64,000 nucleotides of DNA from an uncultured bacterium (GTDB taxonomy: Bacteria > Sysuimicrobiota > Sysuimicrobiia > Sysuimicrobiales > Sysuimicrobiaceae): NCBI GenBank assembly GCA_964437095.1, contig CAYTFH010000015.1:851-64850 (forward strand). The letters run 5' to 3'. Of this stretch, positions 51,897-56,811 are shown in pieces. The notes under the pieces were generated by a model. That model was not told the origin of the DNA. It searched no databases and worked only from the letters and a program-made list of their open reading frames with translations. The position numbers and the translations under genes were made by a program. Every line of letters starts with the position of its first letter. Within the stretch, counting starts at the first letter, position 1.

Positions 51897-52622
51897 GTGA
51901 GGGGTGAAGGCCCGGGCGGGGAGGAGCGTCGCACCGCCTGGCGCGTGGACCTGCGGGGTCTTGCGGACTACGAGACCACCTGGCGGCTCCAGCGCCAGCT
52001 GGTGGTATGCCGCCAGCAAGGTGCAGTCCCCGATGTGCTGCTGTTGGTGGAGCACCCGCCGGTGGTCACGTGCGGCCGGGCCACCCGGCCCGAGCATCTG
52101 TTGACGCCCCGCGAGACCCTCCAGCGCCTGGGGTTCGGGGTGTTCGACGTGGAGCGGGGTGGCAGCGTCACCTACCACGGCCCCGGTCAGCTGGTGGGCT
52201 ACCCCATCGTGGACCTGCGCGCCTACGGCGAGAACGTGGTGGGCTACGTGCGGATGCTGGAGGAGAGTGTGATCCGCACCCTGGCCAGCTACGGCGTAGC
52301 CGCCGGGCGTCGGCCCGGCTTTCCCGGGGTGTGGGTGGGCGACCAGAAGATCGCGGCGGTGGGTGTGGCGGTCAAGCGCCGGGTTACCCTACACGGGTTC
52401 GCCCTCAACGTATCCACGGACTTGGACGCCTTCCGGGTCATCAACCCGTGCGGCATCGGGTACACCCCCACGTCCCTGGAACGGCTGCTGGGCCGTGGGG
52501 TGGCCCTGGAGGAGGTTCGGGATCGCTACGCCCGCAGCTTCGAGGAGGTGTTCCGGGTCCGCCTCGAGTCGGTGAGCCCGGGCCGGCTCCGGGCCGCCTG
52601 CGGACTGCCCGCCGTGGGCTAG
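51897..52622 (+). CDS. lipB: lipoyl(octanoyl) transferase
   Basis: LLLVEHPPVVTCGRAT...GGSVTYHGPGQLVGYP...KIAAVGVAVKR motifs. Confidence 0.9.
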   Translation: MRGEGPGGEERRTAWRVDLRGLADYETTWRLQRQLVVCRQQGAVPDVLLLVEHPPVVTCGRATRPEHLLTPRETLQRLGFGVFDVERGGSVTYHGPGQLVGYPIVDLRAYGENVVGYVRMLEESVIRTLASYGVAAGRRPGFPGVWVGDQKIAAVGVAVKRRVTLHGFALNVSTDLDAFRVINPCGIGYTPTSLERLLGRGVALEEVRDRYARSFEEVFRVRLESVSPGRLRAACGLPAVG

Positions 52623-52718
52623 AGTTTCCAGCTCCACCCTCCGGCCGTGATAGACTGCTGCGTAGGCGCCCGGTGGAACTCCCGGCGCCGGACGCGGTCG
52701 CGAGGAGGTGCGTTCGGA

Positions 52719-53015
52719 ATGCCCACCGTCTACCTGCCCGCACCCCTGCGCCGCCTCACGGGCGGCGCATCCCGGGTGGAAGTCCCGCCGGGGACCGTGG
52801 AGGACGTGCTGCGAGCCCTGGACGAGCGGTACCCAGGCATGCGGGCGCAGCTGTGCGAGCCGGACGGCTCGGTGCGGGCGTTCATCAACGTGTTCGTGAA
52901 CGGCTCGGAGATCCGCACCCTGCAGGGCCCGCAGACCCCCGTGGGGGAAGCCGACGAGGTGTCCATCATCCCCGCCATGGCCGGCGGGGCGGCTCGGAGG
53001 TGCCTTTGTCGGTGA
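52719..53015 (+). CDS. ThiS/MoaD/CysO-like ubiquitin-fold sulfur-carrier protein with 8-aa extension after the GG
   Basis: beta-grasp pattern ending ...IIPAMAGG followed by AARRCLCR and stop; GAGGAGG RBS. Confidence 0.7.
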   Translation: MPTVYLPAPLRRLTGGASRVEVPPGTVEDVLRALDERYPGMRAQLCEPDGSVRAFINVFVNGSEIRTLQGPQTPVGEADEVSIIPAMAGGAARRCLCR

Positions 53016-53084
53016 CCCGCAGCACCTCCACGGCCCGCGCCTGAAGCGGGCCGGTTGCGCCCGGCCTACCGGAGGGCTGGGCCG

Positions 53085-53939
53085 GTGAGCTCGCAGGGCC
53101 GAGCCGGCGCGCCGGGAGCCCAGGCCGGTGTCCTGCTGCCGGACCTGCGGTTCTTCCCCGCATCCAGCGTGCTCCTGCACGAGGAGGAGGACCCGCCGCG
53201 CGTAGACCGCCTGGTGGGCCGGCTTCGGGAAGAGGGGGTACTGCGCAACCCTCCGCTGGCCGCGGAGCTGGGCGACGGCCGCGTGGTGATCCTGGACGGT
53301 GCCAACCGGGTGACCGCCCTGCAGCGCATGGGAGCGGTCTTCGTGCTGGTGCAGGTGGTGCCCTACCACGACCCCGGGGTGGTCCTGGACCGCTGGCACC
53401 ACCTCCTGCAGGAGGTGCCGGACGGGCTGGTGGAGCACCTCCGCCGCGAGATCCCCCTGCAGCCCGAGCGTCCCGAGCGGGCTCCGGAACGGCTGGCGAG
53501 GGGCGAGCTGCTGGCCTACCTGCGGCAGGGTGAAGGCGCGTGGGCCGTCCCGCGGTCGGAAGCCCTCACGGAGGGGGCTTGGTGGCTGCGGAGCTTGGTG
53601 GCCTCGTACCGGGGACGCGTCCCGTACCACCGGGTGGACTCCGAGGACGTGGAGCTTTTGTCCGCCCGGTACGGCCAGGTGCGGGCCCTGGTGGCCTTCG
53701 GCCGGTTCAGTAAGTCCGACATCCTGGAGCTGGCGCGCAACGCCGCGAAGCTGCCCGCGGGGGTGACCCGCCACGTGGTGCCGGGCAGGGCCCTGCGGGT
53801 GAACCTGCCCCTGAAAGTGGCCTTCGGTGCGGGGACGTTGGAGGAGAAGAACGCTTGGCTGGCGGACTGGGTGCGCTGGCAGGTGCGGGAAGGGCGGGTG
53901 CGGTACTACCCCGAGCCCACGGTGCTGTTCGACGAGTGA
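53085..53939 (+). CDS. ParB/Sulfiredoxin (DGQHR-like) domain protein, function unknown
   Basis: LLPDLRF...VDRLVGRLREEGVLRNPP...VVILDGANRVTALQRMG ParB N-domain pattern; GTG after GGAGGG (alternative ATG at 53055). Confidence 0.55.
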   Translation: MSSQGRAGAPGAQAGVLLPDLRFFPASSVLLHEEEDPPRVDRLVGRLREEGVLRNPPLAAELGDGRVVILDGANRVTALQRMGAVFVLVQVVPYHDPGVVLDRWHHLLQEVPDGLVEHLRREIPLQPERPERAPERLARGELLAYLRQGEGAWAVPRSEALTEGAWWLRSLVASYRGRVPYHRVDSEDVELLSARYGQVRALVAFGRFSKSDILELARNAAKLPAGVTRHVVPGRALRVNLPLKVAFGAGTLEEKNAWLADWVRWQVREGRVRYYPEPTVLFDE

Positions 53940-53959
53940 CCAGAAGGAGCGTGTGGAGC

Positions 53960-54898
53960 GTGGCTTACCGGTTCGAGACCAAACTCCCGAGGATCGGGGA
54001 AGACCTGCTGCAACGCATCGGCAACACGCCCTTGCTGCGCCTCCGGCGGGTGACCCGGGGCCTGCCGGAGGGCGTGGAGGTGTGCGTGAAGGCGGAATGG
54101 TTCAACCCCGGCGGGTCGGTAAAGGACCGGCCCGTGCTGTGCATGATCGAGGACGCGGAGCGGGCGGGCCTGCTGACCCCCGACAAGGTCCTCCTGGACT
54201 CCACCTCGGGCAACGCGGGCATCGCGTACGCCATGATCGGCGCGGCCAAGGGCTACCGGGTGAAGCTGGTCATGCCCGCCAACGCCAGCGAGGAGCGCAA
54301 GCGCATGATCCGCGCCTACGGTGCGGAGCTGGTGTTCAGCGACCCCCTGGAGGGCTCTGACGGCGCCATCCTCCTGGCCCGCCGCATCCAGGAGGAAGAC
54401 CCCGACCGCTACTTCAAGCCCGACCAGTACAACAACCCCTCCAACTGGAAGGCCCACTACGACACCACGGGCCCGGAGATCCTGGCCCAGACCGAGGGCC
54501 GCATCACCCACTTCGTGGGCACTCTGGGCACCACGGGGACCGTGGTGGGGGTGGGCCGGCGGCTGCGGGAGTTCAACCCCGAGATCCAGATCGTGGCGGT
54601 GGAGCCCGACAGCCCCCTGCACGGCATCGAGGGGCTCAAGCACATCGCCAGCTCCATCCGTCCGGGCATCTACGACCCCTCCGTCCACCACCGCAAGTTG
54701 GGCGTGAGCACCGAGGCCGCGTACGCCATGGCCCGCCGCCTGGCCCGGGAGGAGGGGATGTTCGTGGGAGCCTCCGCGGGGGCCGCGGTGTGGGCGGCCC
54801 TGCAGGTGGCCCGGGAGCTCCGGGAGGGGCTGGTGGTGGCCCTGGCCCCGGACGGGGGCGACCGGTACCTCAGCACCGCCCTGTGGCGGGACGTGTAG
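53960..54898 (+). CDS. cysM: PLP-dependent cysteine synthase (CysM/CysK family)
   Basis: KAEWFNPGGSVKDR PLP-lysine motif; SGNAGIA; GTG 10 nt after AGAAGGAG. Confidence 0.85.
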   Translation: MAYRFETKLPRIGEDLLQRIGNTPLLRLRRVTRGLPEGVEVCVKAEWFNPGGSVKDRPVLCMIEDAERAGLLTPDKVLLDSTSGNAGIAYAMIGAAKGYRVKLVMPANASEERKRMIRAYGAELVFSDPLEGSDGAILLARRIQEEDPDRYFKPDQYNNPSNWKAHYDTTGPEILAQTEGRITHFVGTLGTTGTVVGVGRRLREFNPEIQIVAVEPDSPLHGIEGLKHIASSIRPGIYDPSVHHRKLGVSTEAAYAMARRLAREEGMFVGASAGAAVWAALQVARELREGLVVALAPDGGDRYLSTALWRDV

Positions 54899-54912
54899 TA
54901 TCCTGGGTGGGG

Positions 54913-55332
54913 ATGGGGACGCTGCGGGAGACGGAGAGCCTCCGGGTGAGCCCGGAGCACGTGCAGGCCATGGTGGAGCACGCGCGGGCGGAGGCGCCCA
55001 ACGAGTGCTGCGGCGTGCTCACCGGGCGCGACGGCCGCGTGGAGCAGGTGGTCCCGGTGGCCAACGCGGACCGCAGCCCGTACACGTACCGCATGGATCC
55101 GCGGGAGCTGTTGCGGGTGTACCAGCGGGCGGACGCGGAGGGCCTGGAGGTCCTGGGCTACTACCACTCCCACCCCTCCACCCCTGCCGTGCCGTCCCGC
55201 ACGGACGTGGCCCGGGCGGTGGACCCCTTCGCGGTGTACGTGATCGTGTCGCTGGCCACCGAGCCCCCTGAGGTCCGCGCGTACCGCATCCTGGACGGAG
55301 GGTACCGGGAGCTGGAGCTGAGCGTGCGATGA
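54913..55332 (+). CDS. JAMM/MPN+ metalloprotease (Mec+/QbsD-like)
   Basis: E...HSHPSTPAVPSRTD JAMM motif; 140 aa. Confidence 0.8.
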   Translation: MGTLRETESLRVSPEHVQAMVEHARAEAPNECCGVLTGRDGRVEQVVPVANADRSPYTYRMDPRELLRVYQRADAEGLEVLGYYHSHPSTPAVPSRTDVARAVDPFAVYVIVSLATEPPEVRAYRILDGGYRELELSVR

Positions 55333-55787
55333 GGTTCTCCACCCGAGCGGAGTACGGGTTGCGCGCCCTCATCGACCTGGCGCTGTTCGGCCATGAGGGT
55401 CCGGTGCAGACCCACGACATCGGCCGCCGCCAGGGGCTGCCCGAACCCTACCTGAACCAGCTGCTGGCCCAGCTGCGGCGGGCGGGCCTGGTGGTGAGCA
55501 AGCGCGGCCCCCACGGCGGCCACCGCCTGGCCCGGCCTCCCGAGGCCATCCGGCTGCACGAGGTGTTCCTGGTCCTGGAGGGAAGCACCTCCCCGTGGGA
55601 GTGCGTGGACCGGGACGACCCCGACTGCACGTACGCCCACGGCTGCGGCCTGCGGCCCCTCTGGCTGCGCCTCAAGGAGGCCACCGACCAGGTCCTGCGC
55701 AACACCACCCTGGCGGACCTGCTGCCCCCCTTCGTGCCCGCGGCTCCTTCCCTGGGGGAGGGACACCGGGCCCGCCCGGTGCTATAA
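55329..55787 (+). CDS. Rrf2-family transcriptional regulator (IscR/CymR-like)
   Basis: RFSTRAEYGLRALIDLA...GPHGGHRLARPP wHTH; Cys cluster CVDRDDPDCTYAHGC; ATGA overlap. Confidence 0.8.
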   Translation: MRFSTRAEYGLRALIDLALFGHEGPVQTHDIGRRQGLPEPYLNQLLAQLRRAGLVVSKRGPHGGHRLARPPEAIRLHEVFLVLEGSTSPWECVDRDDPDCTYAHGCGLRPLWLRLKEATDQVLRNTTLADLLPPFVPAAPSLGEGHRARPVL

Positions 55788-55967
55788 TCGACCCGGAAGG
55801 AGCGACCGGTCCGGTACACCATCGGGAACAGGGTTTTCCTGGAAACGCGGGTCGTGCCCGACCGAGTGGGCTTCGGGGGACAGAGCCCCACAGGTGCGTG
55901 GTCCAGGAGGGCCCTGTTCCCCTGTTTGTTGCGAGCGGGCATGCGGGCCAAGGAAGGAGTTGCGAGC

Positions 55968-56594
55968 GTGGCGGACCGGCCCGGGGCGGACGGGCAGACC
56001 GGGAGGGAGCGGGACCGCGCCCGGTTCGAGGCGCTGGTGCGGGAGCACCTGGACAGCCTGTACGGCGCGGCCCTGCGCCTCACCCGCAACCGCAGCGACG
56101 CGGAGGACCTGCTGCAGGAGACCCTCCTGAAAGCGTGGCGGTCCTTCCACACGTTCGCGGAGGGGACCAACGCCCGGGCCTGGCTGTTCCGGATCCTTAT
56201 GAACGCCCACATCGACCGCTACCGCAAGAGCGCCCGCGAGCCGGAGACCACGGACGTGGAGGACGTGGGCGACTTCTACCTGTACAGCAAGGTGCAGGAG
56301 TCCGAGCTCCTGCGGCGGGTGGGGGATCCCGAGAAGCTGCTGGAACGGGTCATGGAGCACGAGGTGCGGGAGGCCCTGGAGTCCCTGCCGGACCACTTCC
56401 GCAGCGTGGTGATCCTCGCGGACCTGCAGGGCTTCTCGTACAAGGAGATCGCGGACATCCTGGGGATCCCCCTCGGCACCGTGATGTCCCGGCTGTTCCG
56501 CGGCCGACGGCTGCTGCAGCGGAAGCTGTGGGACTACGTACGGTCCCACCACCGGATCACCACCGCGGGGGAGGGTGCCGCCCTTGGACTGTAG
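55968..56594 (+). CDS. ECF (group 4) sigma-70 factor
   Basis: region 2 ([14 protein letters not shown]) and region 4 ([26 protein letters not shown]); AAGGAAGGAG then 8 nt then GTG. Confidence 0.85.
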
Positions 56595-56811
56595 GGAGTT
56601 CGAGGCCAGGCTGTGGGCGTTCCTGGACGGGGAGCTGGACGAGGCCGTCTGCGCGGAGTTGCGGGCCCACCTGGAGCGGTGCCCCGGCTGCCTGGACCAC
56701 TACCGGTTCGAGGGCGCCCTGCGGGTGTTCGTGCGCCGCTGCTGCCACGAAACCGTCCCCGAATCGCTCCGCCACCGCCTGCACTCCCTGATCGCACGCC
56801 TCGAAGACTGA
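56575..56811 (+). CDS. zinc-binding anti-sigma factor (ZAS, RsrA-like)
   Basis: C...HLERCPGC (HxxxCxxC) motif; overlaps 3' end of the sigma gene; start may be TTG 56584. Confidence 0.7.

Follow-up and report, generated by a model that had tools for sequence, protein, structure and literature searches.

A predicted free serine kinase of the SbnI/SerK superfamily encoded within a CysO/CysM-type cysteine biosynthesis operon of an uncultured Sysuimicrobiota bacterium

What is a gene for a ParB-like protein doing in the middle of an operon for cysteine biosynthesis? The question is raised by a locus in the genome of an uncultured bacterium of the Sysuimicrobiota (GCA_964437095.1, contig CAYTFH010000015.1), from which we analysed a 64-kb stretch of DNA with a G+C content of 72%, referred to here as the window. 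Five tightly spaced genes run in one direction on the + strand (52719-55787), in the order sulfur carrier, ParB-like protein, CysM-type cysteine synthase, JAMM peptidase and Rrf2-family regulator. A first-pass annotation had described them as a thiocarboxylate-dependent cysteine operon of the CysO/CysM/JAMM type that includes a regulator of the Rrf2 family, a description borne out by the presence of all five genes at these coordinates and by family-profile matches. Having seen no E1-like activating enzyme (E1; MoeZ/ThiF) in the window, it had put the ParB-like protein forward as a candidate stand-in for the E1, in carrier activation or sulfur handling. We arrive at a different answer: the ParB-like protein is probably a free L-serine kinase, whose predicted activity would make O-phospho-L-serine (OPS) for the adjacent CysM, and the operon would be a variant of the CysO pathway.

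The best-supported start of the ParB-like gene (53085-53939, + strand) is the GTG codon at 53085, which has the sequence GGAGGG some 9-10 nucleotides (nt) upstream and gives a protein of 284 amino acids, the same as database protein P0001. The DGANR motif noted at first pass occupies residues 71-75. Profile searches with the DndB, DUF262 and sulfiredoxin (Srx) families had been proposed as a means of placing it; a Pfam scan gave no match at E <= 0.01, to ParBc or to any other family, and precomputed Pfam domains are absent from all 120 homologues among the matches listed, which go by the names 'hypothetical' or 'ParB N-terminal domain-containing'. The only NCBIfam matches are to SbnI (4.8e-16) and SerK (6.5e-7). 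A phmmer search of the Protein Data Bank (PDB) with the 294 amino acid open reading frame (ORF) found SbnI at 2.9e-13 over residues 30-268, and SerK and its Pyrococcus furiosus homologue at ~1e-8. When a family profile (A1) made from 29 members of the ParB-like family was used instead, SbnI matched at 2e-27, with profile positions 21-282 aligned to chain residues 7-250 of 254, and SerK and the P. furiosus homologue PF0380 matched at 1e-13 to 4e-12 (SerK itself at 3e-13); beyond these three there was no PDB match under E = 0.01, and none to ParB, Noc or sulfiredoxin at E <= 1.

The same 29 proteins were the input for an AlphaFold2 model with a mean pLDDT (predicted local distance difference test) of 90 and a pTM (predicted template modelling score) of 0.85. 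When this model was compared with the PDB using Foldseek, the top nine matches were all SbnI, SerK or PF0380 (1VK1), with E values of 1.5e-18 to 3.9e-14, target-normalised template modelling (TM) scores of 0.73-0.79 and 227-275 aligned columns spanning both domains. Noc, ParB, PadC and sulfiredoxin rank below these, with ~78 N-terminal residues aligned and query-normalised TM scores of <= 0.25, so that only the N-terminal domain fits the label 'ParB/Srx fold'. The ParB/Noc CTPase clamps and sulfiredoxin share with the ParB-like protein this ~80-residue fold and a GxxR-type nucleotide motif, but the clamps additionally possess a helix-turn-helix (HTH) and a dimerisation domain, neither of which is present here. 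The first-pass annotation was right to pick out an extra ParB/Srx-like gene: Foldseek matches the N-terminal domain to that fold, and the gene is conserved in the operons of relatives. Judged from the model, the protein as a whole has a two-domain serine-kinase architecture, in which the ParB/Srx-type domain is followed by a SerK-type C-terminal domain.

To compare residues and genomic contexts, we collected relatives by a pattern scan with one genome per species, which gave 455 species genomes; the counts that follow refer to the best 80 loci from these. In a hidden Markov model (HMM) alignment, H32-E33 of the family (within an LHE motif) correspond to H29-E30 of SerK and H19-E20 of SbnI, and D71-G-A-N-R75 to D69-GHHR in SerK and D58-GVHR in SbnI. 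W104 and T228-R229 are common to the ParB-like family, SbnI and SerK, whilst H230 is shared with SerK; the key residues of the C-terminal domain are T228-R229-H230, together with R273-x-Y-x-E277. H32, E33, R39, D71, G72, R75, W104, H106, R229, H230, R273, Y275 and E277 are invariant in 80/80 loci and residue 228 is either T or S; this pattern of conservation is that of an enzyme active site. E20 and D58 are reportedly essential in SbnI, and E30 of SerK is said to be the catalytic base. According to the titles of PDB entries 5X0E/G/J/K, SerK E30 has been mutated (E30A, E30Q) to trap complexes. The earlier suggestion that the ParB-like gene probably encodes a nucleotide-using enzyme is supported.

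The best match to the whole protein, in sequence and in fold, is SbnI of Staphylococcus aureus and S. pseudintermedius (staphyloferrin B; 5UJD, 5UJE, 6NR6; TM 0.77-0.79). SbnI has the LHE glutamate, the DGxxR aspartate, the tryptophan, a P-x-G-x-T-R motif and the C-terminal R-x-Y-x-E motif in common with the ParB-like protein, and is likewise encoded beside an OPS-consuming CysK-family pyridoxal 5'-phosphate (PLP) enzyme, SbnA. Unlike the ParB-like protein, which is found in cysteine or tryptophan biosynthetic contexts, SbnI belongs to a siderophore cluster and is also a regulator; the ParB-like protein in turn possesses an extra ~18-residue disordered N-terminal stretch and has H230 where SbnI has phenylalanine. 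SerK (Thermococcus kodakarensis TK0378; P. furiosus PF0380; 5X0B, 1VK1) shares the two-domain fold (Foldseek E 5e-16, TM 0.79), with Glu30 equivalent to E33, DGHHR to DGANR and an identical TRH, at an overall identity of ~20%. Free sulfide is presumably the sulfur donor in the Thermococcus SerK route. The logic of the pathway is shared, serine being converted to OPS and OPS to cysteine by a PLP sulfhydrylase, but SerK is archaeal and ADP-dependent and no carrier protein is implicated in the Thermococcus route (PMC5120207), whereas the window operon implies a protein thiocarboxylate. Clear SerK homologues were not found in bacteria by Makino et al. (PMC5120207).

The company that the gene keeps offers an independent view of its function. 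The best 80 loci come from the Sysuimicrobiota (CSP1-3; many deposited as 'Armatimonadota'), 'ANGP1' and the Chloroflexota (Anaerolineae, Thermoflexus), as well as from Betaproteobacteria, Latescibacterota, Eisenbacteria and Dormiibacterota. Neighbours were called by tblastn with defined queries and, unless stated otherwise, lie within 3.5 kb of the kinase-like gene. CysM is found in 41/80 loci, the JAMM peptidase in 39/80, Rrf2 in 36/80, the carrier in 35/80 and a cystathionine beta-synthase (CBS)-like enzyme, comprising PALP and a CBS pair, in 30/80 (TIGR01137 435 bits, PALP part); a cystathionine gamma-lyase/synthase-type gene is present in 21/80, rhodanese in 7/80 and TrpB2 in 6/80. The closest named relatives are Sysuimicrobiota (CSP1-3), and the five closest species genomes (loci L004-L008, which include Ca. 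Tepidifontimicrobium thermophilum) encode kinase-like proteins with 65-68% identity and CysM proteins with 92-97% identity to those of the window. The order carrier, ParB-like, CysM, JAMM, Rrf2 is retained in all five, indicating that the arrangement is not a chance juxtaposition. In the 41 loci whose sequence extends 3.5 kb or more on both sides, a co-directional fold-type-II PLP enzyme (CysM, CBS-like or TrpB2) lies within 3.5 kb of the kinase-like gene in 28 and within 300 nt in 24, the former figure being a slight undercount through a small overlap that caused L055, where the CBS-like gene abuts the kinase gene, to be missed.

TrpB2, a second OPS-consuming partner of the kinase-like family, has no representative in the window; it adjoins the kinase-like gene in three loci from Chloroflexota (L027, L045, L075) and three from Betaproteobacteria (L030, L038, L054). 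Two of these proteins were tested and score 646 and 629 bits against TIGR01415, and 743 and 738 bits against PRK12391. Genes resembling that for tryptophanyl-tRNA synthetase (trpS) lie beside TrpB2 in the three Chloroflexota loci (as judged by tblastn and by eye only), and no carrier, CysM or JAMM gene was found within +/-10 kb in any of the six. P0079, a 370 amino acid protein from a JGI metagenome, is a carrier-kinase-like fusion in which a ThiS domain ending PAMAGG is followed by a full kinase-like sequence. In seven loci (L013, L014, L020, L029, L050, L069, L070) carrier and CBS-like enzyme form a single in-frame fusion, confirmed as a 548 amino acid ORF in L014 (1002-2648) and L029 (7955-9601) with the junction PAMAGG-AEEIYD...; the fusion gene immediately precedes the kinase-like gene and itself follows a cystathionine gamma-lyase-type gene. 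These fusions suggest that the CBS-like enzyme may also use the carrier thiocarboxylate.

When these settings are compared with those of SbnI and SerK, OPS appears as the common thread. M. tuberculosis CysM condenses OPS with CysO-thiocarboxylate (PMC3227635), TrpB2 enzymes depend on OPS (Busch 2014, cited in PMC11917138), SbnI provides OPS to the CysK-family enzyme SbnA (PMC12414870) and SerK makes the OPS from which T. kodakarensis synthesises cysteine (PMC5120207).

Several loci show other arrangements. L024, L043, L053 and L056 have a reduced set, lipB, kinase-like, JAMM and Rrf2, in an operon without carrier or CysM. A group-II PLP decarboxylase gene (diaminobutyrate-decarboxylase-like, 182 bits) follows the kinase-like gene in L042 (3140-5596), L076 and L079; conversion of OPS to phosphoethanolamine can be imagined here, although this is pure speculation. 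In L066 (8682-9968; Chloroflexia), the kinase-like gene is preceded by one for a 428 amino acid protein with a C-terminal CBS pair, the N-terminal ~290 residues of which match no NCBIfam model.

If the ParB-like protein supplies OPS, the immediate consumer in the window would be the CysM-type cysteine synthase, a 312 amino acid PLP enzyme of fold type II (53960-54898, + strand; TIGR01138 394.3 bits against a cut-off of 394.2) whose gene starts 20 nt downstream of the kinase-like gene and whose PLP lysine lies within SVKDR. Arg220 reportedly sets OPS specificity in M. tuberculosis CysM. The aligned residue in the window enzyme is K227, and among the 41 CysM orthologues encoded beside the kinase-like gene this position is lysine in 39 and arginine in 2. 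The window CysM is predicted to condense OPS with the carrier thiocarboxylate.

The sulfur carrier (52719-53015, + strand; 98 amino acids) is a ThiS/MoaD-fold, CysO-like protein (Pfam ThiS 2.2e-14; NCBIfam SAMP1 62.8 bits against a cut-off of 60). After its PAMAGG motif, which finishes at residue 90, come eight further residues, AARRCLCR, before the stop codon. The Gly-Gly is therefore not the C-terminus, and the carrier needs processing to expose it. All the carriers examined that adjoin the kinase-like gene either have extra residues after the Gly-Gly (mostly 1-18) or are fused to a downstream enzyme, and maturation of the carrier by the JAMM peptidase accordingly seems to be obligatory. The tail itself (window 52989-53015) is semi-conserved in the closest relatives, where it reads AARRCLCR, SPRRCLCR, PRRWLCR, AAGRSLCP or SCWRWLCP, with a cysteine in every one. 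The Mec+-like JAMM/MPN+ metallopeptidase (54913-55332, + strand; 139 amino acids; Pfam Prok-JAB 3.8e-30) contains the motif HSHPSTPAVPSRTD, corresponding to H85-S-H-x10-D, and is predicted to act twice, trimming the carrier tail and freeing cysteine from the carrier-cysteine adduct.

Taken together, the operon is best explained as a self-contained variant of the mycobacterial protein-thiocarboxylate cysteine route that brings its own substrate-activating enzyme. The M. tuberculosis CysO-CysM-Mec+ operon (Rv1334-Rv1336) shares with it a Gly-Gly ThiS/MoaD carrier, a CysM-type PLP enzyme and a JAMM peptidase, whereas the window operon adds the serine-kinase-like gene, the Rrf2 regulator and the eight-residue carrier tail, and its CysM has lysine in place of Arg220. 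M. tuberculosis presumably draws its OPS from the SerA/SerC pathway. In the scheme that we favour, the ParB-fold protein (53085-53939) would phosphorylate L-serine to OPS with either ATP or ADP as donor, and CysM would convert OPS to a PLP-bound aminoacrylate. The JAMM peptidase would beforehand have removed the eight residues that follow the Gly-Gly of the carrier, which would then be adenylated and thiocarboxylated by a MoeB/MoeZ-type E1 presumably encoded in another part of the genome. The C-terminal thiocarboxylate of the carrier would attack the aminoacrylate and, following an S-to-N acyl shift, cysteine would be released by the JAMM peptidase. Control of the whole operon may lie with the Rrf2 protein, a probable Fe-S or redox sensor, acting at a conserved upstream block. 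As to the phosphate donor, SbnI is ATP-dependent. SerK, on the other hand, uses ADP (PMC5120207). A purpose for such a kinase may be found in the reductive glycine pathway that members of the Sysuimicrobiota encode (PMC11604079), since this pathway gives serine from glycine and not through OPS.

Where, then, is the E1? None was found in the 64-kb window, either by tblastn with a MoeB/MoeZ-type E1 as query (none at E <= 1e-3) or with an HMM made from ten locus-linked E1 proteins, for which the best match in the six-frame translation had E = 0.27; the first-pass annotation had made the same observation. It had gone on to propose the ParB/Srx-fold protein as a candidate for a non-canonical step of carrier activation or sulfur handling; as a replacement for the MoeZ/ThiF E1, the protein would adenylate or phosphorylate the C-terminus of CysO. 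The missing E1, the position of the ParB-like gene directly between the carrier and synthase genes and the existence of the P0079 fusion can all be read in this way, and sulfiredoxin, which has the same N-domain fold, phosphorylates a sulfur oxyacid, to judge by the title of ref. 54 in PMC12704722. We nevertheless regard the proposal as very improbable. The fold of the whole protein and its catalytic residues fit the serine kinases rather than Srx, the homology to those kinases extends over the full length and, in 10 related loci, MoeB/MoeZ-type E1 genes are present no more than about 10 kb from the kinase-like gene (NCBIfam MoeB 415 bits, MoeZ 372 bits, SAMP-activating E1 348 bits). In L061 the E1 adjoins the kinase-like gene (order JAMM, E1, kinase), in L072 and L081 it lies within ~1-3 kb, and in seven Sysuimicrobiota-type loci it is 5-9 kb downstream. 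The kinase-like gene therefore accompanies the E1 and does not replace it. Furthermore, the gene adjoins TrpB2 in the six loci where no carrier gene is found within +/-10 kb. An unlinked E1 in fact looks normal for the CysO pathway, as the M. tuberculosis E1 is also encoded apart from its partners (cysO Rv1335, cysM Rv1336, moeZR Rv3206c; PMC3227635). The first-pass annotation had held that its proposal would be refuted if an E1 turned up elsewhere and, in addition, the ParB-like gene were not conserved in this operon across relatives; E1 genes did turn up in relatives, but the ParB-like gene is strongly conserved in the operon, which we explain by a function other than replacement of the E1.

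Two other readings accept less, or none, of the proposed reaction. The protein may be a kinase of the SerK/SbnI fold that acts on some other small hydroxylated compound, for instance L-homoserine or L-threonine, or that works mainly in the direction from OPS to serine, as discussed for the DUF1015 'SerBK' proteins. The direction and role of a serine kinase can indeed be ambiguous (GapMind 2026 preprint), identity to the characterised enzymes is low and their equivalog cut-offs are failed, cystathionine gamma-lyase/synthase-type and CBS-like transsulfuration genes are found in the extended loci, and three Chloroflexota loci pair the kinase-like gene with a PLP decarboxylase. What makes a different reaction unlikely in our view is that the CysM, CBS-like and TrpB2 neighbours all use a serine-derived three-carbon electrophile, that OPS is a documented substrate for characterised members of two of these three types, and that the residues common to SerK and SbnI are invariant, the T-R motif of the C-terminal domain included. 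Less probable still is that the ParB-like protein chiefly regulates the operon, by binding DNA or sensing a ligand, and has no metabolic role (cf. SbnI, VirB, Noc). ParB N-terminal domains are found in many DNA-binding proteins (PMC12704722), but the operon already has a regulator of the Rrf2 family, neither an HTH nor any other DNA-binding domain was detected in the ParB-like protein, which has no Pfam match at all, and the invariance of the SerK Glu30 counterpart and of the DGxxR aspartate in 80/80 loci across several phyla is the pattern of an enzyme. Moreover, a pathway-specific regulator would be expected to track a single regulon, whereas this gene is found in operons as different as those for cysteine and tryptophan.

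A number of observations weigh against a serine kinase that feeds CysM, and are best considered together. Identity to SbnI and SerK is 19-22%, at which level substrate specificity could differ, and the protein falls well short of the equivalog cut-offs for both (NF033589 SbnI, 58.9 bits against 350; NF053625 SerK, 28.8 against 380), from which we take it to belong to a separate family within the SerK/SbnI superfamily and to be an orthologue of neither. The NCBIfam name of SbnI, 'bifunctional transcriptional regulator/O-phospho-L-serine synthase', is a reminder that regulation can reside in such a protein. In addition, 13 of the 41 full-flank loci (L055 being wrongly counted among them) have no PLP enzyme nearby, and the Thermoflexus and Latescibacterota loci are without a PLP neighbour, the kinase-like gene in Latescibacterota being located between those for a CCA-adding enzyme and NAD salvage. 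Finally, the window CysM resembles enzymes that use O-acetylserine (OAS) more closely in sequence than it does M. tuberculosis CysM: among PDB proteins, T. thermophilus O-acetylserine sulfhydrylase and E. coli CysM score ~255-260 bits and M. tuberculosis CysM 207 bits. The Arg220 position was considered as a marker to tell OPS from OAS use and rejected, E. coli CysM also being basic there, so that this residue is non-diagnostic for OPS, OAS or thiosulfate. With these points set against the fold, the invariant residues and the gene neighbourhoods, a free L-serine kinase remains the answer that we think probable.

Conservation also offers clues to how the operon is expressed. Upstream of the carrier gene, a 22-nt block, GTGATAGACTGCTGCGTAGGCG (52648-52669, + strand), is near-invariant in six genomes whilst the intergenic DNA around it is divergent; it holds an extended -10-like element, TGATAGACT, and is a candidate promoter/operator. 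The Shine-Dalgarno sequence GAGGAGGTG, 5-8 nt ahead of the carrier ATG, is invariant too. The block is likely to be the operon promoter and possibly also an Rrf2 operator, and its position 5' of the carrier gene implies that the five genes are probably a transcription unit of their own downstream of lipB. A scan for sigma-70 consensus elements gave no promoter ahead of the carrier gene, the extended -10-like element being visible by conservation only, and a search there for an inverted-repeat Rrf2 operator gave only weak 9-nt arms, to which we prefer the conserved block as the more convincing operator candidate.

The Rrf2-family regulator itself (55329-55787, + strand; 152 amino acids; Pfam Rrf2 4.7e-38) overlaps the JAMM gene: the stop codon of the latter and the start of the former share an ATGA, noticed at first pass and evident on reading the sequence, through which translation of the two genes appears to be coupled. 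The first-pass annotation had called the protein a CymR-like repressor. Membership of the Rrf2 superfamily stands (TIGR00738, 124.6 bits against a cut-off of 73.3) but the likeness to CymR does not hold at the level of the equivalog (NF047409, 96 bits against 195). The protein contains a cysteine triad, C92-x7-C100-x5-C106 (window 55602-55646), such as Rrf2 sensors that bind Fe-S clusters typically have and B. subtilis CymR is not known to have. It is more likely, on this basis, to be an Fe-S or redox-sensing regulator than a CymR orthologue.

Outside the five genes, lipB (octanoyltransferase; window 51897-52622) lies directly upstream of the cysteine cluster, as it does in 30/80 related loci from Sysuimicrobiota-type genomes, although a functional link between the two is not evident. 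The sole strong sigma-70-like promoter match in the region (window 55760-55788) reads GGGACA-17-TATAAT and has a TG upstream; it overlaps the 3' end of rrf2 and lies ahead of a conserved pair of genes for an extracytoplasmic function (ECF) sigma factor and a zf-HC2 anti-sigma factor (55854-56811), which is followed by a Ppx/GppA gene.

Free serine kinases have so far come from two narrow settings, the Thermococcales-type archaea and a staphylococcal siderophore cluster. We found no link in the literature between a serine kinase and CysO/CysM operons or TrpB2, within a search of incomplete coverage; another family, DUF1015, has been proposed as serine kinases (GapMind 2026 preprint). The ParB-like proteins appear, on sequence grounds, to be a separate and much more widespread bacterial family for which there is no Pfam or NCBIfam model. 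Whether the family as a whole is a widespread bacterial supplier of OPS, phosphorylating serine for at least three types of PLP beta-replacement enzyme (the carrier-thiocarboxylate-dependent CysM, CBS-like enzymes and TrpB2) in a branch of cysteine (and tryptophan) synthesis that is independent of OAS and 3-phosphoglycerate, and is thereby the source of the OPS used by TrpB2, is a matter on which we see the chances as evenly balanced. If it is so, serine phosphorylation would be a common bacterial alternative to CysE and O-acetylserine for cysteine synthesis, and would complete the CysO/CysM pathway in organisms where serine may come from glycine (by the reductive glycine pathway, for example). 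It would also provide a physiological source of OPS for the OPS-dependent TrpB2 enzymes. Several hundred clusters of proteins now named 'hypothetical' or 'ParB N-terminal domain-containing' would gain a function, and metabolic reconstructions of uncultured phyla would be corrected.

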